Notes: generated from the sequence alone by a model not told the origin. 64,000 bases of DNA from Candidatus Cloacimonadales bacterium (GCA_963678315.1 OY782781.1:2400001-2464000), one strand, 5' to 3'. Counted from the first letter of the stretch, positions 19,139 through 38,692 are shown. Translations and numbers: made by a program.

Positions 19139-19513
19139 CTAAATTACCCTAAACAAGAAAACCATCTCACCTAAGATTCTGAATGTCTCAAGTTCAAAGT
19201 CTTCTATTATTATTACATCAAAATCAGGATTTAAAGGTTTAAGTATAACCCTCTTCTTTTCCTTATCGAATTGTAGTTTTTTGAGTGTGACACCCTCAGG
19301 AGTCTGACAAGCACTAATCTTACCATTTAGACTTGGAATATCAATAGACTCTTTTATTACTACTACATCTCCATGCATTATCTTTGGAGACATACTATTT
19401 CCATTAACTTTAAGAGCTATATACTTATTTTCTTGATCTGACAAATAAGCTTTTGGTATCTCTATATACTTTGATGGAGCATCATCATAACCATTCATTG
19501 GAGTACCAGCTGC
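19139..19513 (-). pseudogene. 3' fragment of phage repressor (S24 domain only) created by the duplication
   Basis: identical to 21075-21449; lacks HTH and native start. Confidence 0.85.
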
Positions 19514-21061: not shown

Positions 21062-21074
21062 TATAAAGTTCTCC

Positions 21075-21803: not shown

Positions 21804-21832
21804 TTGATCTCCTATTTTACATATCATTTCAT

Positions 21833-21945
21833 TTCGCATTGTTGCACACTGATGCGATGGACTGAAACTTTTCCTTGACTACTTTCGCATATTTTCGCTT
21901 TATAGATCTAGTAATCATTATTTGCAACATTGCGAACAATGTCAA
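21833..21945. promoter_or_regulatory. Repressor/Ner switch: leftward sigma70 promoter and inverted operator pair
   Basis: minus strand TTGACA-17nt-AATAAT (21945-21917); TTCGCATTGTTGCA (21833-46) is the near-perfect inverse of TGCAACATTGCGAA (21923-36); conserved in the relic at 57.2-57.35 kb. Confidence 0.6.
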
Positions 21946-21965: not shown

Positions 21966-22208
21966 ATGAGATCACCCTATAAACCTGCTGTAATAAGATC
22001 AGCTATGACGCTTAAAAGACTCACAACAAAGGCATTAGCCGAACGCTTATTCATCTCCAGAAGATCATTAGATTATTTTATTAATGAAGGAAGGCATATA
22101 AGAAAAGCAGAAGATGTCTTAGAAATTCTTCAACCTGAGCTTGATGAGATAAGTGAAATTTATCGCAAACATACTAACATAGAAGTCGAGAGTTGCGAAA
22201 AGAGGTAA
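21966..22208 (+). CDS. Ner/Cro-like small HTH regulator
   Basis: 80 aa, 'TTKALAERLFISRRSL'; divergent from repressor, ahead of transposase; AGGAGG RBS. Confidence 0.75.
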   Translation: MRSPYKPAVIRSAMTLKRLTTKALAERLFISRRSLDYFINEGRHIRKAEDVLEILQPELDEISEIYRKHTNIEVESCEKR

Positions 22209-24250
22209 TGATGGAATACAAAGAACTAACGGTTAACGATATTCAAAGAATGTTCTCGGTAAGTCAGGCTTCTGCATATAGAATGACTAAGACTTATAAA
22301 TGGGAGTTCGTTAACAAGCCTTTGAAAAAGGGTGGTAGAAAAAAACTTTATTTAGTACCAGTTAATTTAATTCCTACCAAAGAAAAACCTCTACCCTCTT
22401 TACCTAAAAGCAATAAACAGCCCTGTAAAGCAATATCTGAGGCTGTTAAAGCCGAGATAGTGGAGTATGACGATTCTATCAAAGACTTAGTACCAAGAAT
22501 TCAAGTTCCTGAAAGTGAGTTAATGAGAGCTCAGTTAAAAGCTGAACTTTGTGAGAGGATACTTTCTGAATATGAGAAGATAGGTGTAAAAAAACATGCT
22601 ATCGCAAATGTATTAGACGCTTATAATTCAGGATTGATACTACCTAAACTGTTCTTTATTGAAAGAACTAGAACAGAAAGGTCAATTCGTATGTGGCTTA
22701 AAGTATATGAAGAGAATGGTAGAGACTATAAGGTTCTTACTCGATTATCTAAAGCATCAAGTGTTAGGAAGGCAACTCTAAAGGAGCAAAACTTCTTACT
22801 GAATATATTGTTAGACGCAAACAAGATTAAGATTGGTACAGCTATTAGAAAGTTAAAGCAGTTTAGTAGACTAGGAGCTATTGAATCCCCAACCAGTAGT
22901 AGATCGCTTAGACGTTGGTGTGAAGAGTGGAGAGACAGCCACATTCAACAGTGGAATCTTCTTCGTATGGGCGAAAAATACTCTAAAGATACTTCCATAC
23001 TAAGCCTAAGCAGATCTGATGCTCTTAATGTTGGAGATGTTTGGGTTGCTGATGGACATAAGCTAGCCTTTGACATAATCGATCCAGATACAGGTAGACC
23101 AAAGAGAATGATGTTAATTCTATTCTTTGATTGGGCTAGTAGATATCCTGTTGGAGCATCAATAGCTAACACTGAGGACTCAGAGCATATACTTCTTGCT
23201 TTAAGGAATGGTATCCTTCATTGGAATGGAAGACCTAAGTATGTATATTTAGATAATGGTAGAGCATTTAAATCTAAATTGTTCCACCAAAAATGGGAAG
23301 AGCACAATTTTGAAGATGAGTTCTGTGGAGTGTTTCCTAGACTTAGCATAAAAGCTAAGTTTGCTAAAGCTTATAATGCTAGAGCTAAAGTTGTAGAGAG
23401 GTTCTTTAGAACATTCCAAGAAGACTTTGAACGCTTTATGGATACCTTTAGAGGTTCTGACATAGCTGACAAACCAGCCTTCTTAATGAGAAACGAGAAA
23501 TGGATTAAGAAACTTAAGAAACGTGAGCCTGTTACTATCGAGGAAGCTAAAATGATGATGTCATTCTACTTCCAAGAAATGTATGGTAAAACTCCACATG
23601 GAGGACTTGCAGGTCGTACTCCTCTTGAAGTGTTTAGAGCTAGTCAAGTACCTGAAGACAGAAAAATCGATGATTCAGAACTTAATTTCATGATGCTGAA
23701 GGTTGAAGAGAGAAAAGTTAGAGCTAATGGTGTTCAACTCTTTAACATTGTTTATTATCATGACTATTTAATGAATTATGTAGGTCAGAATGTTTCATTG
23801 AGGTATGACCTGATGGATATGCGTTCCGTCTTGGTTTATGACAAGAAGGGTAAGATAATATGCCAAGCACTTGCTAAGAAGAGTGTTCATCCATTTGTTA
23901 AGCTTGCTGAAAATGAGCCTATAGTTAAAAAGCAATGGCTTAAGCAACTAGCACATCAAAGAAAGCTTGAGAAAGATGTTAAAGAGAAATCAGCTGAACT
24001 ACAGAAGCAAGTGCAAGAGGCTGTATCAGACTTTGAATTACCAATTTTAGAAGTAACAAAAAGTGCCTTCAACGATTCAAGTATGTTAGAACATAAGGCT
24101 ACTGACAACCCTAGCCTAGACATAGATAAAATGGCTGAGAACACAGCTCGTTTAATTTCAAAAACAAAACAAGTACCACCTATAAAATCTATAGAAGAAC
24201 GTGGACTAGAAAATCTTGATAAAATGCTTAAACAGATAGGTATAGAATAG
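22208..24250 (+). CDS. MuA-like DDE transposase
   Basis: 'WVADGH', 'YLDNGRAF', 'AKVVERFF'; Mu C-terminal domain 'RKVRANGV..LRYD'; TAATG overlap with ner. Confidence 0.92.
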   Translation: MMEYKELTVNDIQRMFSVSQASAYRMTKTYKWEFVNKPLKKGGRKKLYLVPVNLIPTKEKPLPSLPKSNKQPCKAISEAVKAEIVEYDDSIKDLVPRIQVPESELMRAQLKAELCERILSEYEKIGVKKHAIANVLDAYNSGLILPKLFFIERTRTERSIRMWLKVYEENGRDYKVLTRLSKASSVRKATLKEQNFLLNILLDANKIKIGTAIRKLKQFSRLGAIESPTSSRSLRRWCEEWRDSHIQQWNLLRMGEKYSKDTSILSLSRSDALNVGDVWVADGHKLAFDIIDPDTGRPKRMMLILFFDWASRYPVGASIANTEDSEHILLALRNGILHWNGRPKYVYLDNGRAFKSKLFHQKWEEHNFEDEFCGVFPRLSIKAKFAKAYNARAKVVERFFRTFQEDFERFMDTFRGSDIADKPAFLMRNEKWIKKLKKREPVTIEEAKMMMSFYFQEMYGKTPHGGLAGRTPLEVFRASQVPEDRKIDDSELNFMMLKVEERKVRANGVQLFNIVYYHDYLMNYVGQNVSLRYDLMDMRSVLVYDKKGKIICQALAKKSVHPFVKLAENEPIVKKQWLKQLAHQRKLEKDVKEKSAELQKQVQEAVSDFELPILEVTKSAFNDSSMLEHKATDNPSLDIDKMAENTARLISKTKQVPPIKSIEERGLENLDKMLKQIGIE

Positions 24251-24259
24251 GAGATCAAC

Positions 24260-24973
24260 ATGCGAGAATATACCTTGGCAGAAACACAAAATGTAAAACA
24301 AGCAAAAGAACTTTTTAAGTACTTACTTAAGAGACCTAAGACTGAGATGGTTGGGTTAGGACTTATCTATGGTCCTCCAGGACTTGGTAAAAGTAGATTT
24401 GCAAGGCAAACAGCCATTAAAAACAACTATATTTACTTCAGATTAGAAGCAACTATGACAGCTAAGAGCTTTTCAGTTAAACTTCTTGAGAGAATATACT
24501 TCCACTTCGGTATGCCAAGAATAGGTATTAGAGGGAGTGCAAATGATATCTTCCAAAGATGCTTTGAGATATTAAAGAACTTCGATAATACTGTTATAGT
24601 CATAGATGAGATAGATTATGCTTTTAAGAACAAGAGAATCCTTGGTAGTATTCGTGATATAGTAGACCAAACACTATCAGTTGTTGTGCTTGTTGGTATG
24701 GCTGATGCTAAAGAAAGTTTACTCTCTGCAGATGCTCACTACTTTGACAGATGCAACTTCTTCTGCCAATTTAAACCACTAGATGTTAAAGATTTAACAC
24801 TTTTATGTAAAGAAGTGTGTGAAGTTAAGATTGATGATATAGTAATTAAACATATTGCCAAGAGGACTAGTGGTAACATTAGGAAATTCATTAAATCATT
24901 GTACTCTCTTGAGAACTTAGCTCAAACACATGATTTAACAATTATCAAGCCTCAGCATTTAGATATGATGTGA
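24260..24973 (+). CDS. MuB-like AAA+ transposition ATPase
   Basis: Walker A GPPGLGKS, Walker B IVIDEID, 'LVGM', 'GNIR'. Confidence 0.9.
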   Translation: MREYTLAETQNVKQAKELFKYLLKRPKTEMVGLGLIYGPPGLGKSRFARQTAIKNNYIYFRLEATMTAKSFSVKLLERIYFHFGMPRIGIRGSANDIFQRCFEILKNFDNTVIVIDEIDYAFKNKRILGSIRDIVDQTLSVVVLVGMADAKESLLSADAHYFDRCNFFCQFKPLDVKDLTLLCKEVCEVKIDDIVIKHIAKRTSGNIRKFIKSLYSLENLAQTHDLTIIKPQHLDMM

Positions 24974-24980
24974 GGTCTCA

Positions 24981-25466
24981 ATGCAGACTACTAACTACAA
25001 AATAATCAGAAATTTCGTGGAGTTTTATGGAAAGCCTTTCACTGGTGACGTTGTTGCTGGTGAAACTGGTATTCCAATCCAAAAGACCATTAGAGTGTTA
25101 AACACAATGAGTTATAAAGGATTAATCAAATCTATATCCATGCAAGGTAAGTTCGCTATTTATATTAAGAATAGCGACTATGTTGATAAAAATCCCATGA
25201 ACAGTTTCAATTTCGAAATCAAATTCCTAAAAGCTATAATCAGAAAGTTAAAAACAGAAGAAGTTAAAAGTGCAAGACACTTAGCAGACCTACTTAAGTG
25301 TGGAAGGAGACGTGTCACAAGATACTTAGTAGCTCTCTGTTCAATAGGTATGGTTGGCTTAGTAGATAAGAAATACAAAGTAATTAAGGATATGGACCTA
25401 CTACTTGTAGGTAGTAGATATGACAGCCAAATCCTAAAGAAACTCAAAGCTAAAAACAAACAGTAA
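24981..25466 (+). CDS. Phage protein, probable tandem winged-HTH
   Basis: basic 161 aa; 'SARHLADLLKCGRRRVTRYL' HTH-like. Confidence 0.5.
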   Translation: MQTTNYKIIRNFVEFYGKPFTGDVVAGETGIPIQKTIRVLNTMSYKGLIKSISMQGKFAIYIKNSDYVDKNPMNSFNFEIKFLKAIIRKLKTEEVKSARHLADLLKCGRRRVTRYLVALCSIGMVGLVDKKYKVIKDMDLLLVGSRYDSQILKKLKAKNKQ

Positions 25467-25480
25467 GATAAGGAGCAACT

Positions 25481-26080
25481 ATGGTAAGAAAGGAAAAGAT
25501 GTTAACTGATGCTAATGGTAGAGAATACCCAGCTAAAATACTTGATCCTCAAATCGTTAAACGTGATGCAATAGTTAATCGTTTGATGAACAGAGCCTTA
25601 AAACTAAATGGAAGGATAGTATCAGATAAAGTTAAAATGGCTGATGATATTAACAAATACCTAAATCAAACAGCTCAAAAGTATGGTGAGGAGTGGAAAG
25701 GTAATGCTGAGTTGGTATCCTTTGATGGAAAATATAAAGTCGAAATCAGACAAAGAGAACGAATTGATTTTAGTGAGAAACTTCAGATAGCTAAACAAAA
25801 GATAGATATGTGTCTAAAGCGTTGGACTGAAGATTCTAACATTAACCTTCAAGCAGTTATCAAAGAGGCATTTCAAGTTGATAAGAAAGGAGAGATTGCC
25901 AAGAGCAGAATCTTAGGTCTTAGACGTTATCATATCAAAGATACTCAATGGCAACAAGCTATGGACCTTATTGATGAGGCTATACAAGTTACCTCAACAA
26001 AGCAGTATATTGCCTTCTATGAAAGACCAAGTAAAGATAAACCATTTAGGCTTATCTCACTTAACTTTAGTGCATTGTAG
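25481..26080 (+). CDS. DUF3164 family protein (transposable phage)
   Basis: 'KGNAELVSFDG', 'AFQVDKKG', 'WQQAMDLI', 'KQYIAFYER', 'ISLNFSAL'. Confidence 0.85.
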   Translation: MVRKEKMLTDANGREYPAKILDPQIVKRDAIVNRLMNRALKLNGRIVSDKVKMADDINKYLNQTAQKYGEEWKGNAELVSFDGKYKVEIRQRERIDFSEKLQIAKQKIDMCLKRWTEDSNINLQAVIKEAFQVDKKGEIAKSRILGLRRYHIKDTQWQQAMDLIDEAIQVTSTKQYIAFYERPSKDKPFRLISLNFSAL

Positions 26081-26214
26081 TTTTTTCTTAGAGCAAAGTA
26101 TTAACTCCAAATTTAGGGAGTGTTTCTCTTTGCCTAAATTTCTGTGGTAACTGTAGGCATGGAGGTTTGACCTTGCCTCATAGCCATTATATATATGTCC
26201 TAGGAGATATAAAT

Positions 26215-26427
26215 ATGATTCAAGTTTTTAAAGAAAGCAGATGCTACACACCAGTAAATGTAGCAGAAATTTTAAATGTAGATATTAGCACAGTCTACAG
26301 ACTTATTCGTGACATAGATGATCCATTACCAGCCTTTAGATTAAAGACTAATGGTCAGTTAAGGGTTCATGGAAAAGAAATTAATAAATACCTAGAAGAT
26401 CACAAAGTCGATCCTCTTAATGAATAG
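26215..26427 (+). CDS. Excisionase/MerR-like HTH DNA-binding protein
   Basis: 'YTPVNVAEILNVDISTVYRLI..LPAFR..GQLRV'; AGGAGA RBS before ATG 26215. Confidence 0.75.
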   Translation: MIQVFKESRCYTPVNVAEILNVDISTVYRLIRDIDDPLPAFRLKTNGQLRVHGKEINKYLEDHKVDPLNE

Positions 26428-26429
26428 AT

Positions 26430-26813
26430 ATGACAGACAGGCAGATTGAGTTAGCTAAACACTTGAGAAAAACAATAGTTATTTTCGCAAAAAATGATCT
26501 CCGAATAACTGTTGATGAATTACATTCTCAGATGGAAACTTTAGGATTCGGAACCTCCTTAAGAAAACTCAATCTGCCTTCTCTCGTTAATCTTAATCTT
26601 ATTCTCAGAGGAAAAAAGAATTATACTCATGAGAATCTAGATCCTCAAGGCAAAAAAATATGGGCTCTTTACAAATCATCAAACTGGTCTAGAGAGCAAT
26701 TATATGCATTTATAGCACAGAAATTTAATAAATCAGGAATCAAATATTTAACTAAAAATGAAAAAGGAACTTTAATTAAGGTCTTACAATCTTATGAATT
26801 CAAGAGAATATAA
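26430..26813 (+). CDS. GemA/gp16 (DUF1018)-like protein
   Basis: 'SLRKL', 'QGKKIWAL', 'LYAFI', 'LTKNEKGTLIKVL' pattern and position. Confidence 0.6.
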   Translation: MTDRQIELAKHLRKTIVIFAKNDLRITVDELHSQMETLGFGTSLRKLNLPSLVNLNLILRGKKNYTHENLDPQGKKIWALYKSSNWSREQLYAFIAQKFNKSGIKYLTKNEKGTLIKVLQSYEFKRI

Positions 26814-27255
26814 AATCAAACGACAATCAGCTAAAAAACTATATCTTAAAGGAGAGACTAATGCAGTGGCTCTTGCTAAGATTTATGATGTAGCAGAAAA
26901 GACAGTTAGAAACTGGATTAAGAAAGGTAACTGGGAAGCTGAGTATGATGAGATTTCAACACTTGAAGATGAAATTAAGATAGCACTTAAAAAGGCTTTA
27001 ATTAAAGCTCTCAGAGAATATGCAAGAGCACCACAAGATACTGCCCTCCAATCTTTGGTATCACTGCTTAGACAATACAAGAAAGACTTTGAGCCAACTA
27101 AGGACTTCATTGAATATATGAAGAAGTTCTTAGATTGGTTAATTGATTTCTTCTTAACTAAGAATGAAGATGAGATAGCACGAGCTATTCAAAAAGAGAT
27201 ATTAGGAGAGTCTGGTATTGTAGAATACTTTAGAAAGAGAGCAAGTAGTGGTTAG
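26794..27255 (+). CDS. Putative terminase small subunit (HTH, DUF1804-like)
   Basis: 'AKKLYL..LAKIYDVAEKTVRNW..GNW'; overlaps large terminase start. Confidence 0.7.
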   Translation: MNSREYKIKRQSAKKLYLKGETNAVALAKIYDVAEKTVRNWIKKGNWEAEYDEISTLEDEIKIALKKALIKALREYARAPQDTALQSLVSLLRQYKKDFEPTKDFIEYMKKFLDWLIDFFLTKNEDEIARAIQKEILGESGIVEYFRKRASSG

Positions 27256-28792
27256 AATTACACAAAAAGACTATAAGAACTTTTCGGACATTGCTTCTAA
27301 AACTTCCAGTGTAAAGCCCTTTCACAATGACACACCTAGAAAACAGAAGCAAAGAATAAGGAAGGCTACCAGTAATGGCTGGTCAGCCTTCTCTTATTTT
27401 TGTGTAAGTTATTTCCCTCACATCTTCAAGCTTGAATTTGCAGATGCTCACAAGGAAATGTTTAAGATTACTGAAAAGTATAATGGAGTAACATCAATTA
27501 CAGGCTTTAGAGGACTTGGCAAAACTGTTCTCATGGGTGTAGTATATCCTATCTGGAAGATTATTAAAGGCGAACGATATGTTATCCATACTGCTGCTGA
27601 TGCAGATTTAGCAGAAGAGAGAACATCATTTACTTACAATGAGTTAACTCAGAATAAAAGACTCCAACTTGATTTTGATGGTATATCACCAATAGATAGA
27701 GATGAGTCTGATTTTTATCTTCAGAATAAATGTAGAATCAGAGCTAGAGGTATTAAACAGTCTTTTAGAGGATCTATCAACCCAAGAACTTCAACTCGTC
27801 CTGGACTAGTTATCTGTGATGATATAGATAAAGAAGAAAACATTGGTAATCAATCCATTGGTAAAAAGAAGATGGATAAGATTATTCAAGAGATTGGTGG
27901 TGCTTTAGATCCAGCTGGAAATGGTAAGATTATCTGGCTTGGTAATTTAGCACATCCTAATTATGCTATCTGTCAATTTCAACAAGACATTATTGATGAA
28001 CTCAAATCTGATATTCCAGAATTCAATCCTGAGACAGTTCAGCATCTTTATGGCTTAGAAAAAAGACTTCTAAGATTCCCACTAGAAAATCAAGATGGGT
28101 ACAGTGTCTGGGAGAAACAATATCCAACTACTCAACTCCCAAAGTTAAAGAAGAAGTTTGGTTTAACAGGTTATCAGAGAGAGTTTTTAGGTAAACCAGT
28201 TATTGAAGGCAATATGTTTAAATACCATTGGTTTATCAAATATCCCACTCTTCCAAAGAGATTTAAAAGAGTATGGATGTATGCAGACCCAGCATGGGGA
28301 GAGAAAGGTTGTTACAAGGCTATTATCTCCATTGGTTATGATGGATATAAGTTTTATGTTATCCATGTATGGATTAGACAGACTGAAAACAGCAAGTTCT
28401 TTAATTATTATTATGATGCTTATAATGAGCTATCCAGGAAGTATGGAATTAGATTTAGATCAGCCATGGAAACTAACTTTGGACAGCATAGAATATTAGC
28501 TGACTTTGATTTATGGTGTAAGGAAAACAATCGCCATCCAATATCACACAGAATCAGAAGAATCAATAATGACAAGAACAAGAATCTTAGAATTGAGAGA
28601 ACTGATACAACCATTGAAACAGGAAAAGTACTATTTCCTGATGGTCAAGATACTCCTACTCTTATAAATCAGTATTTAACCTATCCAGATGGTTATGTTG
28701 ATGGTCCTGATGCTTTAGCTGGATGTTTAGAGAGATTCCCAGAGTATGATACAGGAAAATCAAGAGTCAGAGTAAGGAGTTTTTCATTTTGA
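27248..28792 (+). CDS. Terminase large subunit
   Basis: Walker A 'GFRGLGKT', Walker B 'VICDDID', nuclease 'YADPA', 'DGPDAL'. Confidence 0.9.
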   Translation: MVRITQKDYKNFSDIASKTSSVKPFHNDTPRKQKQRIRKATSNGWSAFSYFCVSYFPHIFKLEFADAHKEMFKITEKYNGVTSITGFRGLGKTVLMGVVYPIWKIIKGERYVIHTAADADLAEERTSFTYNELTQNKRLQLDFDGISPIDRDESDFYLQNKCRIRARGIKQSFRGSINPRTSTRPGLVICDDIDKEENIGNQSIGKKKMDKIIQEIGGALDPAGNGKIIWLGNLAHPNYAICQFQQDIIDELKSDIPEFNPETVQHLYGLEKRLLRFPLENQDGYSVWEKQYPTTQLPKLKKKFGLTGYQREFLGKPVIEGNMFKYHWFIKYPTLPKRFKRVWMYADPAWGEKGCYKAIISIGYDGYKFYVIHVWIRQTENSKFFNYYYDAYNELSRKYGIRFRSAMETNFGQHRILADFDLWCKENNRHPISHRIRRINNDKNKNLRIERTDTTIETGKVLFPDGQDTPTLINQYLTYPDGYVDGPDALAGCLERFPEYDTGKSRVRVRSFSF

Positions 28793-29667
28793 CATATTAC
28801 GATAAATTAATATATCAGTATTATCAAGTTTTGAATAATTCATGGAAAAAAGAAATCAAAGAATCAGCCAAGCAAGCTCTTCAGATGCTCACAGATCTTC
28901 CAAAGCATGAACGAGTAAATAAGAGCCATATAGACGATATCTTAAATATTATATCTTCCAACCTTAACGAAGACTTTTCATCTCTTATACGTAGCGATAC
29001 TAAGTCTTTTATCAAAAGAAACCTGCTACTAGGTCTTAACGATTCACAAAAGCAAGTTCCACACAACACAAAAATAGGAATGTATGGTATCAGAGAAAAC
29101 AAATTAGAGACTCTTATAACTAAACAAAATCTCTTCTGGATTGGAAATAGATATGGCACAGATATAGAAGAGAAGTTCAAGAACACACTCAAAGAATCAA
29201 TATCTTCTGGTTACACCAAGAAAATGCTAGCAAATAAGCTTAAAGAAGAGTTCAAATCTCTTGGAGATAAGTCTCAACACTACTGGCAAGGTTTAGCAGA
29301 GCACACAGCCCTTAGAATACGAGAATTTGGCAGATTAGAAGGATATCATAAAGCTAGAGCTACAAGTTATAGACTTGTTGTGATACTTGATGATAGGACT
29401 TCGGAGATATGCAGAGCTCTTTCTGCCCAGAATAAAGTCTATCCAGTAGATACAGCTATAGAGACTATGAATGAGCTACTCAACATAGATAACAACAAAC
29501 ACTCACTTGAATCAGTAAGAGAGAAAACTAAACAAATAGCTCCCTGGGTATCTGATAAGCAAATAAAAAGAGACTCCATAGGTCAACCCATTGGAGTCTC
29601 TGGAAATTATTCACCTTTTCCACCGTATCATTGGAGATGTAGGACTACTACTGATATTGATTATTAG
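28789..29667 (+). CDS. Phage head morphogenesis protein (MuF/SPP1 gp7 family)
   Basis: 'LDDRTSEICR', 'PPYHWRCRT'. Confidence 0.85.
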   Translation: MTYYDKLIYQYYQVLNNSWKKEIKESAKQALQMLTDLPKHERVNKSHIDDILNIISSNLNEDFSSLIRSDTKSFIKRNLLLGLNDSQKQVPHNTKIGMYGIRENKLETLITKQNLFWIGNRYGTDIEEKFKNTLKESISSGYTKKMLANKLKEEFKSLGDKSQHYWQGLAEHTALRIREFGRLEGYHKARATSYRLVVILDDRTSEICRALSAQNKVYPVDTAIETMNELLNIDNNKHSLESVREKTKQIAPWVSDKQIKRDSIGQPIGVSGNYSPFPPYHWRCRTTTDIDY

Positions 29668-29671: not shown

Positions 29672-30682
29672 CTATCCTTTAGTGCAATATTTTATGTATT
29701 CTTCTGTAAAGCTATTAGATAGTTCTGTATCTTCATAAATAATATCAAATTGGTTACTTAAATAAGCTCTGCACATTGTTTTAACTTCCCTTTGTCCAGC
29801 TATATGAATTACTTTTTGTTCAATTTTCAGATTTATTTTTTTTGCAGTATGACTTTGGGTACCAATAATAATTCCTCTGTCAACTTTATCTCTAACAAGA
29901 ACCTCAATCATCCTTTGTTTCACTTGTTTGGTTACCTCTCTATTGTACCAGTTTTTTATTTCAACATAAATAGCTTCAGATGTAATTGGATCTTCTAATA
30001 TTAAGTCTTTTCCTCCATCTTTACTACTAGGAGTAAGAAAAGTTTTATACCCCAATCCTTCAAATAATTCTGCAAATAAATGTTCAACATTCCTCCAATC
30101 TATTTTTTTAAAAATGTTACCATCTCTAACAAGTTCATGAATTAAAGATTTACAAGCATTCCTAATTATCATATAATATGGAGATTTGTTTAACTCATCA
30201 TATTTCTCAATAGTTCGTAATAATCCATTCTCCCATAATCTAATTAGTTGGTCATACACTATATGTGCTTTTCGTATAAATAACTCTTGGGGGATCTTTT
30301 GAGAAAAATCATCAGGTAAGAAGTTTTCTAACAGAATAGAGTTAATCCTTAAACTATTTCTAAGCTCTTTGATTTTCAATGGTAATTTATTCTCATTTTC
30401 AACATCTAACATAATAACAGTCACAGGAATATCATGTGAAGTAGCATATTGTAACTCAGTCTCAACTAAGGTATGCCCCCATGCATCTCTAATTGAAGGT
30501 AATTCAGACCCTATTATAAAGACAAAATGATTGGATAAATCAATCAAAGATTTAACATCTCGTGATTCTTCTCCATTTTTTTCTAAAACCGTATACCCTA
30601 ATCTAGTTAAAACTTTTCTAACTATGTTTCGAACAAAAGGTGATAGTCCTGTAAAAGGACCTGAAATGAATACATTTTTCAA
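29672..30682 (-). CDS. DUF4062 (TIR/NDT-like) + Mrr-type restriction endonuclease fusion
   Basis: N-term 'VFISG..R..V..LG..IDLS..FVFIIG..TELQYA..IPV'; C-term 'EHLFAELFEGLGY..TPSSKDGGKDL..YVEIK'. Confidence 0.75.
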   Translation of the reverse strand: MKNVFISGPFTGLSPFVRNIVRKVLTRLGYTVLEKNGEESRDVKSLIDLSNHFVFIIGSELPSIRDAWGHTLVETELQYATSHDIPVTVIMLDVENENKLPLKIKELRNSLRINSILLENFLPDDFSQKIPQELFIRKAHIVYDQLIRLWENGLLRTIEKYDELNKSPYYMIIRNACKSLIHELVRDGNIFKKIDWRNVEHLFAELFEGLGYKTFLTPSSKDGGKDLILEDPITSEAIYVEIKNWYNREVTKQVKQRMIEVLVRDKVDRGIIIGTQSHTAKKINLKIEQKVIHIAGQREVKTMCRAYLSNQFDIIYEDTELSNSFTEEYIKYCTKG

Positions 30683-30691
30683 ATAAAGCTC

Positions 30692-31177
30692 CTAATTTCT
30701 TTTATCTATCATATCTTCAATTTCTGCTTCCTGAATTTTATTTCTCGCGAAACTTATTGGAAATAAACTTAGTATCAAACTCCAAATTAATAGTAGAGTC
30801 TGTATTGATATGAGTGAAAATAATACACCTCTGAATATTAATTTGTAGGAGAAAAGATTTTTAAATTGGTAAACTAAAGGACTAAAGACACTAAACAGTA
30901 AACTAAAAATTATTATCAATGTAGAATAAAGTAATGGTTTTGATAACCTGTCGAAATTTTCTACTTTTCGATATTTACCATCATATGCTACTTTTAGTAA
31001 CTCTGGCTGTATAATTGCAATCCAAGCTCCCATTATACCAAATATTATTGCCGATGTTGTTCTTAGTGATTCAAGGGTTGCAAATTGATTAGAAACTGGA
31101 ATTTTCATTCCTAGAAAAAAAGAGCAAACTGTGATAAGAGTTATCATAACAATAAAAATTAATGTTTTTATTTTCAT
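30692..31177 (-). CDS. Hypothetical 4-TM membrane protein
   Basis: four hydrophobic helices; 'LRTTSAIIFGIMGAWIAIIQP'; operonic spacing. Confidence 0.75.
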   Translation of the reverse strand: MKIKTLIFIVMITLITVCSFFLGMKIPVSNQFATLESLRTTSAIIFGIMGAWIAIIQPELLKVAYDGKYRKVENFDRLSKPLLYSTLIIIFSLLFSVFSPLVYQFKNLFSYKLIFRGVLFSLISIQTLLLIWSLILSLFPISFARNKIQEAEIEDMIDKRN

Positions 31178-31179
31178 TA

Positions 31180-32220
31180 TTAGTCCTCAATTCTTGAAAG
31201 GATGATATCTCTTTTAGCTGTTAGAGCTTCTTTTAGTGAATTAATGTCATATAATTCTGTACTCTTATGAGTAACATCAATATCTAGTTCCCCTTTGACT
31301 ATACTCTTACTTAACCAGTACGTTTCTCTATCTCCTTCTAAATTGAATCCTATATCGGATATTGTACCTTCATCTTTATTTTGCCAAGTGTTTAAAAGAT
31401 CATTCACGTTGTTTTCGCTTGGATTGTAATTCGATTCATACTTAAAGTTCAGAACTTTATTGGAGACCTTATTAATATCGTGAATCCCTGTGATTTTCAG
31501 GAATGATTGAATAACATTTAAATCCTTTTCAATCTGTATATCTAACTTCATCTTAGTAATTAGTTTTCTGACATCTGAAAATCTACTCTTTAGTAAATCT
31601 AGCTGACCACCCAATAATAGAAGATGAGACTCAAAAAAAGGATAGATAAGTTCATTCTGTTTGAAATGTTCTAGGTTCTCAATGCTAGGAGTTTTAATCC
31701 TAAAATCCCCTACCCTCTTCTCTTTAACAAATTTTGAATGAAATTGTAAAAAACTCTGCAAATATTGACAAAACTGTCTATTTCCGTTAACAATATGATT
31801 AAATCTAACAGTTAAATAAATGTTCTTCGAAGGAATTATCCAAAAGTAGGTACCATATCCAGGTACATAACCCTCTTCAAATTTAGTATCTTTCACATCA
31901 GCTTGATCAATAGGCTTAGTTGAGTTAATAGCACTAACACTATTATCTGTTGTTGGTGTTTCATTCCAAGTTGTAAGGAATATATCCCCATACTCATTTT
32001 TTGTGATATCTGCACAAAAAGTTCTCATTATGTTTGAATTTTCTTGAGGATTTCCGTAAGTACAAGTCTCAGCTATGGTTTTATCATTTCTTTTTACCCA
32101 TTCAATTAAATCATCAAAAATATTATCTAAAGATCCCGATAGAGACCTTTCATCTCCGTAATGATAATATCCACACTTCTTAATATTAAAGTATCTTAGT
32201 TTTGCTTTTTCATTCATCAT
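31180..32220 (-). CDS. Hypothetical soluble protein (first gene of three-gene operon)
   Basis: 346-aa ORF with AGGAGG RBS; no family confidently recognised. Confidence 0.75.
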   Translation of the reverse strand: MMNEKAKLRYFNIKKCGYYHYGDERSLSGSLDNIFDDLIEWVKRNDKTIAETCTYGNPQENSNIMRTFCADITKNEYGDIFLTTWNETPTTDNSVSAINSTKPIDQADVKDTKFEEGYVPGYGTYFWIIPSKNIYLTVRFNHIVNGNRQFCQYLQSFLQFHSKFVKEKRVGDFRIKTPSIENLEHFKQNELIYPFFESHLLLLGGQLDLLKSRFSDVRKLITKMKLDIQIEKDLNVIQSFLKITGIHDINKVSNKVLNFKYESNYNPSENNVNDLLNTWQNKDEGTISDIGFNLEGDRETYWLSKSIVKGELDIDVTHKSTELYDINSLKEALTAKRDIILSRIED

Positions 32221-32349
32221 TAACCTCCTATTTCATTAGGTACACCTGTGAACTAAGTGAAATATATACCTTCAAAACTACATAGTTACTACTTTGAACA
32301 AATCTTGCTATAATATTATGCTCAAAATCTTTTTGATTAAAGTAGAGCT

Positions 32350-34020
32350 CAGACTGCTGACAAAGTAGAAAAAAGGTGTTTACAGCCAATTTTAGTTTTC
32401 ATCTGATAGTTGATAGATTTTTTAGTATTGGTGATGATATTGTTGCATAAGTTCACTATGGGAGACAATATACCCAAAATAATCAAAAAATTTGAGTATT
32501 TTTGTTAAAATAGAACCCTTTTTTAGCTTTTTATTGATTCTCTTAAAGTATTTAACTAATTTTACTAAATTTTGAGTACAAGCTGTCATTAGAGCTTGTT
32601 CTTTAACTTTTTCAAGTCCTCTATATCGTGCATATCGATATCCATGATTTTGTTTTGCATTAGCAAAACTCCTCTCAATAGTCTCTTTTCGTCGCTTATA
32701 AATCTCTTTACCACAGAATGTTAAACGATTCATATTTATCTTGTCTTTATATTTTTCCCAGACATGCCGATTTAGTACTTTCCTCCTTGTTTTATTTGAA
32801 GTACATTTAGATAAATGAGGACAGTTTTTACAGTCTTCAGCATTTGATACGTATTCTTTGTAGCCCTCTCTTCTTGTTGTTTTGTAATGTAATAATTTGT
32901 TATTTGGACAAATATATTGGTCGTTGACTGAGTCAAATTTGAATTTATTCTTGCTGAAAAATCCTTTTTTATGGCTACCTCTTTTGTACCCTATTACCCC
33001 CATTATTCCTTTTTCACATAAAAAACGACAATTATCTACAGTATTATACCCAGCATCTAAGCCTACAGCTATAACATTAAAATTAAACCTTTCAATCTGC
33101 CGAAGAAGACGAGATTTATATACCACTACATCATTTATATTCCCAGGTGTTATAAATACATCTGTTATAAAATTACATTTAGGATCCGTTGTCCTATGGT
33201 CTAAATAAAAGAAGCCTTGTGGTTTGCGGTCTCGTGCCATAAAACCACTGTCTGGATCTGTTGTGCTGGATTTAATTGTCTTGGTTTCTTCCTGTGGTTC
33301 CTTAGGAGGAAGTGGTTTTATATTGTGTTTTTTTCTGTCTTCTGCGACTGCTTCATCCAAATCTTTAATATATTCTTTTGTAGTTCTTTTTACTACAATT
33401 TTTATGAACTTATTCTTATTCGCATTAGCTTTTATATGGGTTGAGTCTGTATATAAAATTTTCCCATTAACTAAACCATTTTCAATGCCTAACTTAACAA
33501 TATTATCAAAAATCTCTTGAAATAAATCATTATTAGCAAATCGTCTTTTACGAGTTTTACTTATAATTGAATGGTGAGGAATTTTATCATTAAATCCGAA
33601 CCCTAAAAACCATCTATATGCAAGATTAACTTGTATTTCTTTAAATATTTGACGTTCTGATTTAATACCAAAGAGATAACCTATTAATATTATTTTAAAA
33701 AGAGTTATTGGATTAATAGCAGGTCTACCAAAAGTCTCATTGTATGTGTCTTTCATTATATCATAAACGAAAGAGAAATCTATATATTCATCAAAAAACC
33801 TAAGGATATGATCGTCTGGAACCTGTTCTTCTAAATTTACAAGCTCGAATTCGTATTGTTTTCTATATTCTTCTTTAATCATTTTATCACCTCTAATTAT
33901 ATGCCTATCATATAATAAGGAGTAATATTGTCAAGTCTATTTGTGCTTTTTCTGGGTTGTTTAGTACAGAAAAAACATACGAAAATCACACATTGATTAC
34001 ATGACTTTGTCAGCAGTCTG
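32350..34020 (-). mobile_element. IS1182-family insertion sequence
   Basis: 17-bp TIRs CAGACTGCTGACAAAGT / ACTTTGTCAGCAGTCTG; AGCT duplicated on both sides. Confidence 0.92.
32422..33882 (-). CDS. IS1182-family transposase
   Basis: 'GRPAINP', 'AYRWFLG', 'DSTHIKANA', 'TTDPDS', 'DAGY', 'IERSFANAK..HG.R'. Confidence 0.95.
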   Translation of the reverse strand: MIKEEYRKQYEFELVNLEEQVPDDHILRFFDEYIDFSFVYDIMKDTYNETFGRPAINPITLFKIILIGYLFGIKSERQIFKEIQVNLAYRWFLGFGFNDKIPHHSIISKTRKRRFANNDLFQEIFDNIVKLGIENGLVNGKILYTDSTHIKANANKNKFIKIVVKRTTKEYIKDLDEAVAEDRKKHNIKPLPPKEPQEETKTIKSSTTDPDSGFMARDRKPQGFFYLDHRTTDPKCNFITDVFITPGNINDVVVYKSRLLRQIERFNFNVIAVGLDAGYNTVDNCRFLCEKGIMGVIGYKRGSHKKGFFSKNKFKFDSVNDQYICPNNKLLHYKTTRREGYKEYVSNAEDCKNCPHLSKCTSNKTRRKVLNRHVWEKYKDKINMNRLTFCGKEIYKRRKETIERSFANAKQNHGYRYARYRGLEKVKEQALMTACTQNLVKLVKYFKRINKKLKKGSILTKILKFFDYFGYIVSHSELMQQYHHQY

Positions 34021-34064
34021 AGCTCTACCATTCAGTAGAGCTCCTATATTTTTTGCTTATGATT

Positions 34065-37000
34065 CTACTTAATTAGCAAACATTTCTTCACAACTGCTTG
34101 CTTATTTGATTCAAGTTTATAAAAATACATACCTGATGCTACTTTTTTATTTTGATTATTATTTCCATTCCATACAATTTGATATTGACCTTTTTCCATG
34201 TCACTGTCGAGTAATGTTTTTACCTTTTGTCCTCTTACATTGTAAATATTTAGTTTAACTCGACTTCTTTGTGGTATGAAATACCTTATATTTGTTGAGG
34301 GGTTGAATGGATTAGGATAACAATTATAAAGTACTGGTTTTAAAGGAATAACTTGACTTTGTGTATTCTCTGGATTTCTAAGTGAAGACAATATTTTTCT
34401 TGTATTCATTATATGATCGTTTCTTGATCGTGGCATTAGGCTTGAGTATTTTGTCCTACATTTACCACCACTTTCCAACCAAGCAGATCCCATATCAATT
34501 ACAGCAAAACAGGAATCATTATATGTTGGAGGAGAGTCAATTATACTAGCATAATGATCAATGGCATCTTGGTAATTATTAATCAACCTATTACAAAGAG
34601 CTTTAGTGTTTAATAACTCTCTTCTAAAGTCATTTTGATTTGGATATGATATCAGTTTAGCATCAATCCATTCAATCAAACTAGGCACTTGATTAACTTT
34701 TGAATGACATACTGTTATACCTTTAAGAACCTGAAAATCATCATCTGTTAGAAGAGAATCATTAAGTACTTGGTAGTAATATTGTATTGCCATATCCCAG
34801 TTACTATTTATTCTGGCATTTTCAGCTAAATAGAATGTCTCATTCATCCCATCCCTACCGGCACTGCCATTAGGAGTTGTTAACCATGGATCATAGTGAA
34901 TGTCTCTGAAGTTACTAAAGGTGCTAATTATGTCATTTTCAGTTGCATATCCCCACCAATTATCATCAGCTTTAATTTGGCTTTTTATTCTTTCTGTTAC
35001 AATGTTTATTTGCTCAATTTCAGTGTTCTCAAAATTGTTAAAACCTCCAGCAAGATAAGGTGTTGAATGTACTGCAAGCAATCCAATATCATTTTCAGAT
35101 ATTTCATTTCCTCCAGTTTCATTATAAGCAAGGTAAGGGACTGCACCTTTATAAGATGCAATACCAACATCAGAATTTAGAATTTGGTCATGTCCAAAAT
35201 CTATAAGGGATTCATAAGCTGATATTGAAATCTCATTGTTACTTAATAAGCTATTTTTTACTACGTAAGTTCCATTATCAAGCATTTCCAGACCTATCTC
35301 AGCATTAGATAGATGTGTATTAATCACAATCAAATTAGTATTATTTACAGAGGATATCCCCAACCAATGATCTTTAATTACATCAGGGCACATACCTTCA
35401 ACAATAACAGGATAATCTTCAGTTCCGTTGAAATCAATACGTCCGTAGTTATTTATGATGTTTTTATTCCTTATACGAACCTCAATTCCTGGATTAAAAT
35501 TAAGATTTACTCCTGAATTTATACGTAGATTTTTATCTATCACAACATCTTGCCAAATAGTAAGATCTTCATCCACAACACTCGGGATATTATACAGATA
35601 CTGAGCAGTGTTCCTTTCATTGTTTGAAAACTGAGTCCATTCATCCATCTCATCAACATTATTATTCTTTATTGGAATCCTATAAATTTTTGCCTCATTT
35701 GTATCCTGATTACCAGCCAATATATATAAATCTCTTATACTTGTAGAAAAAGCTGATCCAATTGCCATTGACTTAATATTAGCAAAGAAGTTTATGTTAT
35801 AGCTTTGAAGAGGTTCTTCATTAACTTGATATACTGAGAGTTCATTGTCTTTTGATAAAACAACATCTTGTGTGTTACTTTCTCCAAGATCTGCAAGAAG
35901 CGAAGGCCTCCTATTCTTATGATAGTATCCACCATTTTCAGAAGAATAATCGTTGGTTGTATGATTAATTCTATAGCCTTGTTCAACATCAAGAACTTCT
36001 TCTGAGGCTGTTGTTAAGATTTCAATTCCAAAGTTGTCAGGATAGAAATCTCCTGCAATAATTTTGCCAGGGGCTAAGTCAATATTATCAATTTCATCAA
36101 TAGGAGATGGAGTATTGTCAACATGAGACCAGATTTGAACTGGGTCTTCATCTCCATAGTCATAACAGTAGGTAGTATAACTAGAAGTCCTCTCGATTCC
36201 CGGATGAAAATCTTTTGTAATCCCAAAAAACAAACGATTATGATAAACAGCTTCATCGGGATCATTAAATTGTGGTTTAATCAAAAGTAAGTTTGTAGAC
36301 CGCAAGTTAGTGATATTATCATTACCTGGACCAATGATCGGTTCGATATGTTCATCAATGCTATAACCGTCTCTAGTTCCATCTAGAAATCTTGTTTTCA
36401 TAATTTCAATCCAATTATCATTTGTTCGAACAATAGCTGTAATTTCACGACCAAAATTTTGATCTACATTTCCAACAGCCAGTTCAGAAAGAAACCTTCT
36501 CCCATCGGTTAAAGAACGATATAAGATTTCATATTCCGTGCTAGGATAATCATATTGTGTTATTGTTGCATAAAAACCTGTATCAGTGTCGTAGTCATTT
36601 CCATTTAAAATAACATCCATCCTTCCATTACCAGTTACATCGTCAACGACAAGAGACTTAATTTCTGCAGTAACATCATTATTTAATATAACAGGGTAAT
36701 TATCAATTTCAATCATGTTCAAATCATAGGCATATACGGTTACTGCATTGGTCACAAAAACTACTTCAGCATTATCTCCATATACTATATCACCAAAGGC
36801 TGGTTTTGCAATTATAGAGTCATTAACTATTTCCATAAATAAATGTGAATTACGATATAAACATGCAAAGTATTCAAAGCTATCATTAATTGGCTTCTTC
36901 AAACCAAAAGCTAATTCATCAAGACCATCATTATTCATGTCAAATATTGCAACTTCTGAAGTTAACTGATATGTTGATAGGTCTACTAATTCTTCTAACT

Positions 37001-38669
37001 TAGGTACACATGGCACCTCAAAATACACGATATCAGTACGCCCCTCATAAAAAAGCTCTAACGAAAATCTAATATTTCTCCCATAAGGAGAGGAGTCAGA
37101 AATAATAAAGTCGCTAATAGAATCAAAGCCAAGAGAGCTTATTGGATTCCATTGCCCATTTCCTTCATCTATATTAATGAAAGGGTCATCAGTTGAAAGA
37201 TGTCCTATTACAACATCACTACCTGATTCCCACCAGTTCTTTAAGGATATGCTAAGACGTACTTCATCTTCTCCAGTGGACAAAACTCCATCTCCTGTTG
37301 CATCAACAGTAACACTATGAAGTCTATATGCTGGATGGTTCCCTTCAGTGAGAGCTCGATAAACATTTAAACGACCTGTTCCCAGAGAACGCATATACAT
37401 AGAATTTGTATTCATTTGTGTTAGGTCATCTGCGGTTCCCTTTAATCTTTGGATTATTTGTTCACGGGTTATACCTGGGAATGTATCTTTTATCAATGCT
37501 ACAGCACCAGAAACCATTGGTGCAGACATTGATGTTCCATCAGCGTATTCATAATTGCTACTCCATGGATTATATGGTAAATTGTGATTAGTAAACTCTT
37601 CATCCTGAGGGGTAGTTGAAACTATTCCATTGCCAGGTGCACAAATATCAAGCAAGTTCCCGTAGTTTGTATAAGATGCTTTAGCGTCATTGATTCCTGT
37701 AGCTCCAACAGAAATAACTCCTGGTATATTTGCTGGGAAAGCAACACTATTTGTACCTTCATTACCAGCTGCAGCTACAAACACAATAGTTGGATCTTCA
37801 TCCATTATTCTGTTAATGAGATTTCTTAATGTAATGTTAGTATTAGACATTCCCCAGCTCATGTTTATAACTTCTGCTCCATTTCTAAAAGCCCAATTAA
37901 TCCCACTAATAACAGTACTTGCACTGAAACCAAAATGGCTTATTTTGACAGTCATCAGCTGGCAACCAGGCTCAAGGTTGTCCCATCCTCCTGCTACACC
38001 TGCTACACCTATTGAATTATTAGTAGATGCTCCAATAATCCCTGCAACATGAGTTCCATGTCCACTATTATCCTGAGGTATATTGATATCTTGGGGACCG
38101 TTAATTCCGAATACATTATAACCATGGTTACCATTTCCATCATCCCAAAGATTACTTTCCAAATCAGGATGATTTCCATATTGGCCAATACCTAAGTCAA
38201 TTCCAGAATCCAGCACAGCAACCGTAACATTTCCTCCATAAGCTATTTGGTTACTCCATACCTGATTCATACCTATTTTTTCTAAACCCCAAGAGGTTGA
38301 GTTATATGAGTCATCTGTGTTTATTCCGAATAATTCTAATTTATTGTCTGGTTCTGCATATTCAATATTAATTTCTTTCTCTAAATTGAAAATTACATCT
38401 TCAATATCGTACATCTTATTAAATTCAGCCAGATAGTAAGCCCCTTCATAATCACCTGTTTGGATGGTAAACAATGTGTCCAGTTTACTGATTTGATAGT
38501 TAGAGGCAATAGTATTAAACCAAGTTCTATCTGTTATCACAACTCCTGAGTTGCTACCTGTAACATTGATAGAAATATCACTCTTAAAGAGAATATTTCC
38601 TTCTACAAAATTAGCTGATAAAGTGCTCATAACAATAATTAAAGTAATAAAAACTATTATCTTTTTCAT
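34065..38669 (-). CDS. Secreted S8 (subtilisin-like) peptidase, multidomain, with FlgD-Ig/Por-type CTD
   Basis: signal peptide; catalytic 'VLDSG', 'HGTHVAG', 'GTSMSAP'; FG-GAP-like repeats, beta-helix, TPR-like region; 'YPNPFNPST' CTD. Confidence 0.9.
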   Translation of the reverse strand: MKKIIVFITLIIVMSTLSANFVEGNILFKSDISINVTGSNSGVVITDRTWFNTIASNYQISKLDTLFTIQTGDYEGAYYLAEFNKMYDIEDVIFNLEKEINIEYAEPDNKLELFGINTDDSYNSTSWGLEKIGMNQVWSNQIAYGGNVTVAVLDSGIDLGIGQYGNHPDLESNLWDDGNGNHGYNVFGINGPQDINIPQDNSGHGTHVAGIIGASTNNSIGVAGVAGGWDNLEPGCQLMTVKISHFGFSASTVISGINWAFRNGAEVINMSWGMSNTNITLRNLINRIMDEDPTIVFVAAAGNEGTNSVAFPANIPGVISVGATGINDAKASYTNYGNLLDICAPGNGIVSTTPQDEEFTNHNLPYNPWSSNYEYADGTSMSAPMVSGAVALIKDTFPGITREQIIQRLKGTADDLTQMNTNSMYMRSLGTGRLNVYRALTEGNHPAYRLHSVTVDATGDGVLSTGEDEVRLSISLKNWWESGSDVVIGHLSTDDPFINIDEGNGQWNPISSLGFDSISDFIISDSSPYGRNIRFSLELFYEGRTDIVYFEVPCVPKLEELVDLSTYQLTSEVAIFDMNNDGLDELAFGLKKPINDSFEYFACLYRNSHLFMEIVNDSIIAKPAFGDIVYGDNAEVVFVTNAVTVYAYDLNMIEIDNYPVILNNDVTAEIKSLVVDDVTGNGRMDVILNGNDYDTDTGFYATITQYDYPSTEYEILYRSLTDGRRFLSELAVGNVDQNFGREITAIVRTNDNWIEIMKTRFLDGTRDGYSIDEHIEPIIGPGNDNITNLRSTNLLLIKPQFNDPDEAVYHNRLFFGITKDFHPGIERTSSYTTYCYDYGDEDPVQIWSHVDNTPSPIDEIDNIDLAPGKIIAGDFYPDNFGIEILTTASEEVLDVEQGYRINHTTNDYSSENGGYYHKNRRPSLLADLGESNTQDVVLSKDNELSVYQVNEEPLQSYNINFFANIKSMAIGSAFSTSIRDLYILAGNQDTNEAKIYRIPIKNNNVDEMDEWTQFSNNERNTAQYLYNIPSVVDEDLTIWQDVVIDKNLRINSGVNLNFNPGIEVRIRNKNIINNYGRIDFNGTEDYPVIVEGMCPDVIKDHWLGISSVNNTNLIVINTHLSNAEIGLEMLDNGTYVVKNSLLSNNEISISAYESLIDFGHDQILNSDVGIASYKGAVPYLAYNETGGNEISENDIGLLAVHSTPYLAGGFNNFENTEIEQINIVTERIKSQIKADDNWWGYATENDIISTFSNFRDIHYDPWLTTPNGSAGRDGMNETFYLAENARINSNWDMAIQYYYQVLNDSLLTDDDFQVLKGITVCHSKVNQVPSLIEWIDAKLISYPNQNDFRRELLNTKALCNRLINNYQDAIDHYASIIDSPPTYNDSCFAVIDMGSAWLESGGKCRTKYSSLMPRSRNDHIMNTRKILSSLRNPENTQSQVIPLKPVLYNCYPNPFNPSTNIRYFIPQRSRVKLNIYNVRGQKVKTLLDSDMEKGQYQIVWNGNNNQNKKVASGMYFYKLESNKQAVVKKCLLIK

Positions 38670-38692
38670 TTTTTCCTCCTATTTTTTTGCTA

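Follow-up and report, generated by a model that had tools for sequence, protein, structure and literature searches.

The window analysed here is a 64,000-nucleotide (nt) stretch of DNA from a Candidatus Cloacimonadales bacterium (GCA_963678315.1 OY782781.1:2400001-2464000), in which three minus-strand genes lie in close succession between positions 29,672 and 32,220 (Table 1). We term them A, B and C in the order in which they would be transcribed: A is predicted to encode a soluble protein, B a small membrane protein with four transmembrane (TM) segments and C a protein with a nuclease domain in its C-terminal half. A listing of the open reading frames (ORFs) confirms the layout that a preliminary description, made from the DNA alone, had given, A and B being only 2 nt apart and C beginning 9 nt after the end of B. 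By sequence comparison the three are real genes rather than chance ORFs, since A has relatives in 583 representative clusters, B matches the PDC-M18B models of PADLOC and C contains the nuclease domain Mrr_cat at E 1.2e-15. The same description had taken the three for defence-type genes lying among prophage-like genes and had read A and B as a soluble protein paired with a four-TM protein; both views are borne out, the latter by hydropathy and by the PDC-M18 models.

The assignment of A is strong. The PADLOC model PDC-M18A (PDLC04494) matches it at E 3.7e-86 over nearly the entire protein (A residues 2-343 on model positions 1-337 of 339), five more PDC-M18A models match it, all at E<=8.2e-30, and in PHROG it falls to phrog_24371 (E 3.1e-39). 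Pfam and NCBIfam give no family match for either A or B, and NCBIfam likewise returns nothing useful for C. The family to which A belongs is large: a search of all representative proteins yields 583 clusters at E<=1e-3, of which 185 reach E<=1e-30. Its members are called 'hypothetical protein' in the source records wherever they are named at all, with precomputed Pfam domains on none of them. An alignment of 105 full-length members leaves W85, N86, G121 and G291 of A invariant, and the identity of A to proteobacterial members is 25-37%. The gene product of B is matched over its full length by the PADLOC model PDC-M18B (PDLC04500, E 6.4e-39) and by four more B models. A Kyte-Doolittle scan finds four hydrophobic segments in it (approximately residues 6-24, 40-60, 80-105 and 113-145), and F46, W52, A54, P58 and S85 are invariant among 11 aligned sequences. 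On these profile matches, A and B are a member of the catalogued candidate system PDC-M18. The earlier statement that the combination could not be matched to a named system must therefore be given up for two of the three genes, as A and B match PADLOC PDC-M18, which is system #4 of Rousset et al.

The link to system #4 runs through this shared PADLOC family. In Table 2 of the Domainator study (PMC11754643), cluster 4 of the P4-satellite hotspot, comprising two coding sequences, is identified with 'System #4 in Rousset et al. 2022' and carries the annotation 'PDC-M18 (PADLOC)'. Rousset 2022 (PMC9122126) counts system #4 169 times at the P4 hotspot and notes '4 TM in protein 2'; Table S1B lists an 'occasional' third protein and records a 'weak homology to RexA pfam' along with a possible distant relationship to RexAB. 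The pair in the window resembles system #4 in the full-length model matches of both proteins, in gene order, in protein sizes, in the four-TM partner and in its setting on a mobile element. It differs in that its host is Cloacimonadota-like, whereas the noted members come from Proteobacteria, and in that a gene for a DUF4062-like domain fused to an Mrr-type nuclease follows 9 nt downstream. The locus extends the occurrence of PDC-M18, RexAB-like pairs to a Cloacimonadota-like genome, distant from the proteobacterial hosts and their phages in which the family was noted.

What A might do is suggested by its predicted fold. AlphaFold2 returns a confident model of A, with a predicted local distance difference test score (pLDDT) of 92.6 and a predicted template modelling score (pTM) of 0.90. 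Among structures in the PDB, Foldseek ranks RexA of phage lambda first (8twq_B, E 1.4e-3, probability 0.96, TM-scores 0.26/0.31), followed by the other lambda RexA chain (8twq_A, E 5e-3) and by E. coli RdgC (2owl_B, E 5.9e-3); phmmer of A against the PDB sequences yields chance-level matches alone (E 0.33 and 0.73). According to Adams 2024 (PMC11077077), lambda RexA forms a dimer, has two domains joined by flexible hinge and swivel loops, and shows 'unexpected structural homology' to RdgC; flexible hinges of this kind would depress a global TM-score between A and RexA. Among the predicted viral structures of BFVD, the A model finds six phage proteins of 277-322 residues with E values of 1e-3 or below, the closest (E 6e-9) having TM-scores of 0.53/0.57, and the BFVD proteins annotated as RdgC rank lower (E 0.06 or worse). 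From these model comparisons it appears that A probably has a RexA/RdgC-type fold. This adds a structural argument that a large and unannotated family, with its 583 representative clusters, may have the fold of RexA and RdgC. The partner fits the same picture, as B is similar to lambda RexB in size and RexB shows four hydrophobic segments with the same spacing as those of B, and in both cases a soluble protein is followed directly downstream by a small four-TM protein in the range of approximately 145-180 residues. The lambda pair differs from A and B in length, A having 346 residues and RexA 279, in the lack of detectable sequence or profile similarity, and in its position, since the window pair is not adjacent to a repressor gene. 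A prediction of the A-B complex scored 0.00 against a mark of 0.32, which amounts to no verdict and counts neither for nor against binding.

Other soluble and membrane protein pairs are less suitable templates. The preliminary description had pointed to Kiwa, KwaB and DUF4747. Kiwa (KwaA/KwaB, DUF4868) does pair a membrane protein with a soluble one, but its gene order is reversed, the soluble gene being first in the window. We reject a Kiwa, KwaB or DUF4747 identity for A and B, as neither protein matches any Kiwa model of PADLOC at E<=1 or any Pfam family, and as the fold comparison of A gives lambda RexA first and places it with RexA and RdgC. A pair of a HAD hydrolase with a three-TM protein, presumably the DefenseFinder entry 'Rst_Hydrolase-3Tm', was considered too. 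This validated system from the Rousset collection was dropped, because Pfam finds no HAD domain in A and system #4 is a separate entry.

Several results weigh against kinship of A and B with the lambda proteins, and against a settled defence function for their family. The structural match itself is marginal, with no PDB entry matched by A at E<=1e-3 and TM-scores of 0.26-0.31. Compared by BLASTP, A shows no significant similarity to lambda RexA, and B none to lambda RexB. With hhalign, the profile of 105 A sequences reaches a probability of 0.18% against lambda RexA alone and of 0.85% (E 0.065) against an alignment of four RexA sequences, and the profile of 11 B sequences reaches 0.09% against four RexB sequences. 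Even at E<=10, neither of the Pfam families RexA and RexB (PF15969/PF15968) detects A, B or any of three homologues, although the same run gave lambda's own proteins, as positive control, 1e-97 (RexA) and 8.5e-92 (RexB); at E<=0.01 the RexA family matches none of the 105 A-family members. No PADLOC model for RexA or RexB finds either protein at E<=1, and lambda RexA and RexB in turn match only these models and not those of PDC-M18. However, the profiles of RexA and RexB were built from four sequences each, that of RexA having an effective sequence number (Neff) of 1.8, and, since the RexA profile is so shallow, the negative tests are weak evidence against a remote homology to RexA. The tests thus show no sequence homology to lambda RexAB, and the likeness is one of predicted fold and gene layout. 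The E. coli representative of system #4, cloned as pFR81 ('RexA + 4TM'), is placed among the 'additional tested systems' of Table S2B in Rousset 2022, and the validated systems of Table S2A do not include it (PMC9122126). PDC-M18 is accordingly still a candidate system.

Homologous loci show which genes keep company with the pair. We compared ten loci carrying an A homologue, made up of the only hit of a genome scan with the single A protein (locus L001), four of five plasmid hits and five of seven phage hits; two duplicate records (H4, a second record of the H3 plasmid, and phage record H8, a duplicate of H7) and phage vB_Pae_U3 (H6) were left out. The gene directly downstream of the A homologue encodes PDC-M18B in 10/10 loci (E 1.5e-40 to 2.1e-09). 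In L001, a metagenome-assembled genome (MAG) of the Cloacimonadota whose A homologue is 82% identical, both A and B are intact, a gene for an Abi_C protein follows B and a fragment of a type I HsdR gene lies upstream. Elsewhere the gene after B varies. Holin and lysis genes follow in a Mu-like prophage and in Pseudomonas phage Ps59, Pol V in two loci, attP with an integrase in one, a TetR gene in one, a hypothetical gene in one, and LuxR in L011, which has a type I restriction-modification (R-M) system upstream. In Vibrio phage 10N.222.45.E8_PE002 (L009, 3330-8540) Septu (PtuA/PtuB) comes next after the pair, together with a type IV restriction endonuclease, and a small defence island results. 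The PDC-M18 pair is widespread in prophages, satellites and plasmids, and its neighbours are defence or mobile genes.

In four of the ten loci (phages Ps59, vB_BpuM-ZY1 and vB_HboP_4908 and Vibrio phage PE002) the pair stands downstream of a CI/S24-type repressor gene on the same strand, with none, one or two genes in between, an order that mirrors cI-rexA-rexB of lambda. The Ps59 locus (L005, 2401-5572), for example, reads repressor, two genes, PDC-M18 pair. The published description of RexABpp matches it in size and layout, a comparison made by description and not by sequence: in prophage P1 of Pseudomonas putida, a Cro/CI repressor gene comes first, then two further genes and then PP_5643 and PP_5644 (Rosendahl 2026, PMC12894663). 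In that system neither gene can be spared in the defence against two groups of phages, RexBpp spans the membrane with four TM helices, over-expression of RexApp leads to a growth arrest and a membrane permeabilisation that depend on RexBpp, and RexApp, of approximately 37.5 kDa with its His tag, binds DNA, although binding of RexApp to RexBpp was not detected by two-hybrid assay (PMC12894663). If RexABpp belongs to the same family, PDC-M18 would turn from a candidate into a demonstrated and widespread abortive-infection system of the Rex type.

By analogy with these systems, A and B most likely work like RexAB, with a sensor of RexA/RdgC fold triggering a four-TM effector. On the model of lambda RexAB and of RexABpp, A would be a cytoplasmic, dimeric, DNA-binding sensor of a phage product or of a replication intermediate. 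Once engaged, it would activate B, which would damage or depolarise the membrane, so that the infected cell would be arrested in an abortive infection.

It is possible instead that A and B serve the mobile element itself and not host defence, for example in a switch between lysis and lysogeny or by binding recombination intermediates, as RexA and RdgC do. The best structural matches of A are precisely these two proteins, the repressor-then-pair order recurs in the four loci named above, RexA acts without RexB and stabilises the lytic state (Adams 2024, PMC11077077), and the E. coli member stands outside the validated list of Rousset 2022 (PMC9122126). However, the pair in the window lies 8 kb from the CI/S24 repressor gene, on the other side of the early genes, and homologues occur on plasmids and in islands of R-M and Abi genes with no phage repressor nearby. 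An obligate four-TM partner suits an effector, and the RexAB-type pair of P. putida does defend its host (PMC12894663). We therefore regard a purely phage-serving role as unlikely, and retain the reading of A and B as an abortive-infection pair of sensor and effector.

Gene C does not share in the constancy of this pair. The preliminary description had envisaged the nuclease as a coupled partner of the pair, a notion that the homologous loci do not support: against PDC-M18B beside the A homologue in every locus stands a C-like gene in 0/10 (tblastn, 4-6 kb flanks, E<0.01), the best match having E 0.099 over 42 residues. We therefore set C apart from A and B, given also that the relatives of C share its nuclease half only and that this half resembles a single-gene candidate, PDC-S02. 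We lean towards the view that the locus holds two co-transcribed defence modules, the A-B pair and C alone, and not one three-part system. The tight spacing of B and C would then reflect co-transcription within a defence islet and no obligate partnership, and C most probably stands on its own as a single-gene module in which a DUF4062-like domain is joined to an Mrr nuclease.

The rival is a true three-component system, with A as sensor, B as membrane effector or anchor and C as an effector that cuts DNA, perhaps hydrolyses NAD+ as well, and depends on both A and B. The short gaps and a Shine-Dalgarno-like site for C that overlaps the stop codon of B are what one would expect of a genuine three-gene operon, and to that extent they speak against the division into two modules; they make co-transcription and translational coupling probable. 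Likewise, A, B and C are all lower in G+C (0.27-0.31) than the phage genes on their left (0.32-0.36), and an 'occasional' third protein is recorded for system #4 (Rousset 2022 Table S1B, PMC9122126). Yet C-like genes are missing from all ten PDC-M18 loci, where the gene after B varies, the full architecture of C is found in its own cluster only, and N-terminal domains of many kinds occur in the nuclease family, so that a three-component system seems improbable to us. Still more ambitious, and in our estimate quite unlikely, is a RexAB-like pair linked to a protein that would be both a TIR-like NADase and an Mrr nuclease, so that one infection signal would bring about membrane damage, loss of NAD+ and DNA cleavage; the 9-nt gap and the overlapping Shine-Dalgarno site would then mark a genuine functional link. 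Such a composite three-gene abortive-infection arrangement would be unlike the other PDC-M18 loci examined. Two separate modules, a RexAB-like pair and a solitary nuclease, accommodate these observations better.

The nuclease half of C is well defined. Mrr_cat of Pfam covers residues 192-282 at 58 bits against a cut-off of 21 (E 1.2e-15), and an alignment of C with 30 relatives shows W196, R197, E200, L216, T217 and the segment S220-D226 to be invariant among the 31 sequences and E241 and K243 to be at least 90% conserved, with all conserved positions present in C. The D...ExK core is thus intact (D226, E241, K243), in agreement with the Mrr part of the 'DUF4062-Mrr nuclease' label that C had been given. 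Of 54 database matches to C, only its own sequence is full-length; the other 53 cover 22-58%, corresponding to the nuclease half, and their N-terminal halves are unrelated to that of C, some consisting of cold-shock or other domains. Among the PADLOC models, those for mREase_IV (E 1.1e-06) cover only residues 220-304 and 191-282 of C, and PDC-S02 (E 1e-05) aligns residues 190-307 with model positions 192-310 of 334. C thus resembles the Mrr type IV enzymes and PDC-S02 in its Mrr_cat domain with intact core, and PDC-S02 (334-346 residues) also in the equivalent position of the nuclease; it differs from them in that the nuclease half alone matches, its N-terminus being another, DUF4062-like domain.

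The N-terminal half is harder to place. The TIR-like or NDT-like character suggested for it earlier finds tentative support, and the DUF4062 name is likewise tentative, as the Pfam match lies below the cut-off. Against the whole of C, DUF4062 (PF13271) scores 17.4 bits (E 0.0052), and against the N-terminus alone 18.9 bits (E 0.0018), the cut-off being 24.7, with residues 4-80 aligned to positions 2-82 of 82. In a protein-language-model Atlas, 27 of the 30 named nearest clusters are DUF4062 (best 0.92, with 166 shared features), a lead and not a proof; an unfiltered first query gave a weaker best value of 0.84. The AlphaFold2 model of C is poor (pLDDT 50.8) and displays a five-fold beta-alpha pattern in the N-terminus, but Foldseek, working on this low-confidence model, does not tell apart the generic folds that it finds, which include CheY, flavodoxin, TIR and NDT. 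A tblastn search with the N-terminal 185 residues against plasmids and phages gave nothing at E<=0.1. DUF4062 is reported in three 2026 preprints as a TIR-like NADase domain of the anti-phage systems Swarozyc, Evangelion, Vulcan, Vesta and PsAvs2, and the Evangelion preprint names an 'E-Y region' with a conserved catalytic glutamate. In C, E74, E76 and Y79 stand where the DUF4062 model ends, E74 or E76 being the candidate catalytic glutamate. The likeness to the DUF4062 and NIR NADases consequently consists of a weak match to the whole model, of the nearest Atlas clusters and of the defence context, whereas the score below the Pfam cut-off and a catalytic glutamate that is a candidate set C apart from them. 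The N-terminal domain may act as a sensor, as an oligomerisation switch or as a second, NADase effector that controls DNA cleavage. The main texts of the three DUF4062 preprints never mention 'Mrr', though their supplements may list nuclease fusions, and it is possible that the fusion of a DUF4062-like domain to an Mrr nuclease is a new architecture, in a domain family reported as NADases of bacterial immunity (2026 preprints).

Another proposal makes C a conventional restriction enzyme of type IV, dependent on DNA modification, whose N-terminus reads DNA or a modified base and has no NADase activity. The Mrr_cat and mREase_IV matches given above are as expected of such an enzyme, and an NDT-like or TIR-like fold could well bind nucleosides. 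However, the mREase_IV match is confined to residues 220-304, Pfam finds no modified-DNA-binding domain of the Mrr_N type in the N-terminus, and DUF4062 domains are reported as NADases (2026 preprints). Moreover, a Dam-type methyltransferase is encoded on the same element, so that a nuclease directed at N6-methyladenine (m6A) would need a means of self-tolerance. This proposal deserves consideration but is doubtful, and we continue to favour a nuclease putatively governed by a DUF4062-like domain.

Shine-Dalgarno-like sites stand before the starts of C and A. An AGGAG precedes the TTG start of C by 6 nt, and its overlap with the stop codon of B suggests that translation of C is coupled to that of B. 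Upstream of A, an AGGAGG is separated by 3 nt from the first ATG and by 6 nt from the second (32217). The second ATG, which would give 345 residues, is the more likely start, owing to its better Shine-Dalgarno spacing and to the equal length of a 96%-identical relative of 345 residues (P0001).

Table 1. Features of the A-B-C locus and of the surrounding prophage-like region, in coordinates of the window
Feature	Position	Strand	Description
Gene A	31180-32220	minus	346-aa (amino acid) ORF; soluble PDC-M18A-family protein, putative infection sensor, RexA/RdgC-like predicted fold
Gene B	30692-31177	minus	161-aa ORF; PDC-M18B-family four-TM membrane protein, putative RexB-like effector
Gene C	29672-30682	minus	336-aa ORF, TTG start; DUF4062-like N-terminus and Mrr-type PD-(D/E)xK nuclease
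C residues 1-125, DUF4062-like alpha/beta domain (tentative)	30308-30682	minus	sub-threshold Pfam match, Atlas neighbours
C residues 192-282, Mrr_cat nuclease core	29837-30109	minus	Pfam match
AGGAG, Shine-Dalgarno-like site for C	30689-30693	minus	read from sequence
AGGAGG, Shine-Dalgarno-like site for A	32224-32229	minus	read from sequence
CI/S24 repressor	21075-21839	minus	left of cluster
Mu-like early region with small and large terminase subunits (TerS, TerL) and MuF	22193-29667
Insertion sequence (IS) element	32342-34028		perfect 25-bp terminal inverted repeats at 32342-32366 and 34004-34028
IS transposase	32422-33882	minus	DDE_Tnp_1_6, DUF772 and DDE_Tnp_1 domains
Two genes with type IX secretion C-terminal sorting domains	34065-39649	minus	1534-aa subtilase (Peptidase_S8, E 2.7e-52) and 318-aa protein
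Portal	41541-42722	plus
XkdF-type protease fusion	42732-44468	plus
Dam-type methyltransferase	45874-46614	plus

The phage genes around the locus are arranged in an unusual way. Further to the left lie MuA-like and MuB-like genes, a DUF3164 gene, both terminase subunit genes and a MuF-like gene on the plus strand (28789-29667), which passes the Pfam Phage_Mu_F cut-off narrowly (E 6.6e-07, 30.5 bits against 29.6); C runs convergently towards it, its stop lying 4 nt past that of the MuF-like gene. To the right, plus-strand phage genes resume from 40283. A, B and C therefore sit in a minus-strand block of 10.6 kb between two groups of phage genes, and the idea that they form a moron inserted right after MuF is loosely right, with the qualification that they share this block with the IS element and with the two type IX cargo genes. 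The block may be the moron region of one prophage or a junction between two prophage remnants. There is no portal gene between TerL and MuF, and no tail genes are seen in 21075-46614. The relatives of TerL in the phage collection are Mu-like and only approximately 25% identical, a level too low for the comparison to tell whether the block was inserted into a backbone that is otherwise conserved.

In such a setting, the three genes could be decaying cargo of a degraded, IS-disrupted prophage, no longer expressed or functional. The IS element, with its perfect inverted repeats, ends 121 bp upstream of the start of A and may have altered its expression; its other end lies 36 bp past the stop of the S8 peptidase gene. 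Scans for consensus promoters and terminators gave no signal above shuffled sequence, which leaves expression uncertain, and the phage module is broken into TerL and MuF, the 10.6-kb block, and portal and protease, with no tail genes seen. Both the IS insertion and the missing promoter signal count against a working defence locus. Nevertheless, all three genes are full length relative to models or homologues, their invariant residues and the nuclease core are intact, good Shine-Dalgarno sites are present, and A and B are intact in the MAG relative that is 82% identical in A. Hence decay has, in our judgement, only a slim chance of being the explanation, and we retain the reading of two defence modules.

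Other features of the window deserve mention in their own right. Beside the CI/S24 repressor gene, a unit of 1936 bp is present twice in direct succession (17578-19513 and 19514-21449, 100% identical), and the second copy ends within the 3' part of the repressor gene. Each copy contains an identical gene for a 333-aa protein (18124-19125 and 20060-21061) that matches the single-gene candidate PDC-S31 of PADLOC at E 3.4e-41, and the duplication is either a recent event or an assembly artefact. Just before this duplicated region, six minus-strand tRNA genes (16311-17059; Met, His, Arg, Met, Met, Arg) include a 91-nt repeat, 95% identical, that spans two tRNA-Met copies. Near the left end of the window, an ORF of 359 aa (1321-2400) encodes an AAA ATPase that matches PADLOC mad3 at E 4.4e-31 and, more weakly, the models for PtuA, AriA and GajA; the ORFs on either side of it (102-1334 and 2400-3548) share sequence with it or directly adjoin it, and together they may represent another defence system.

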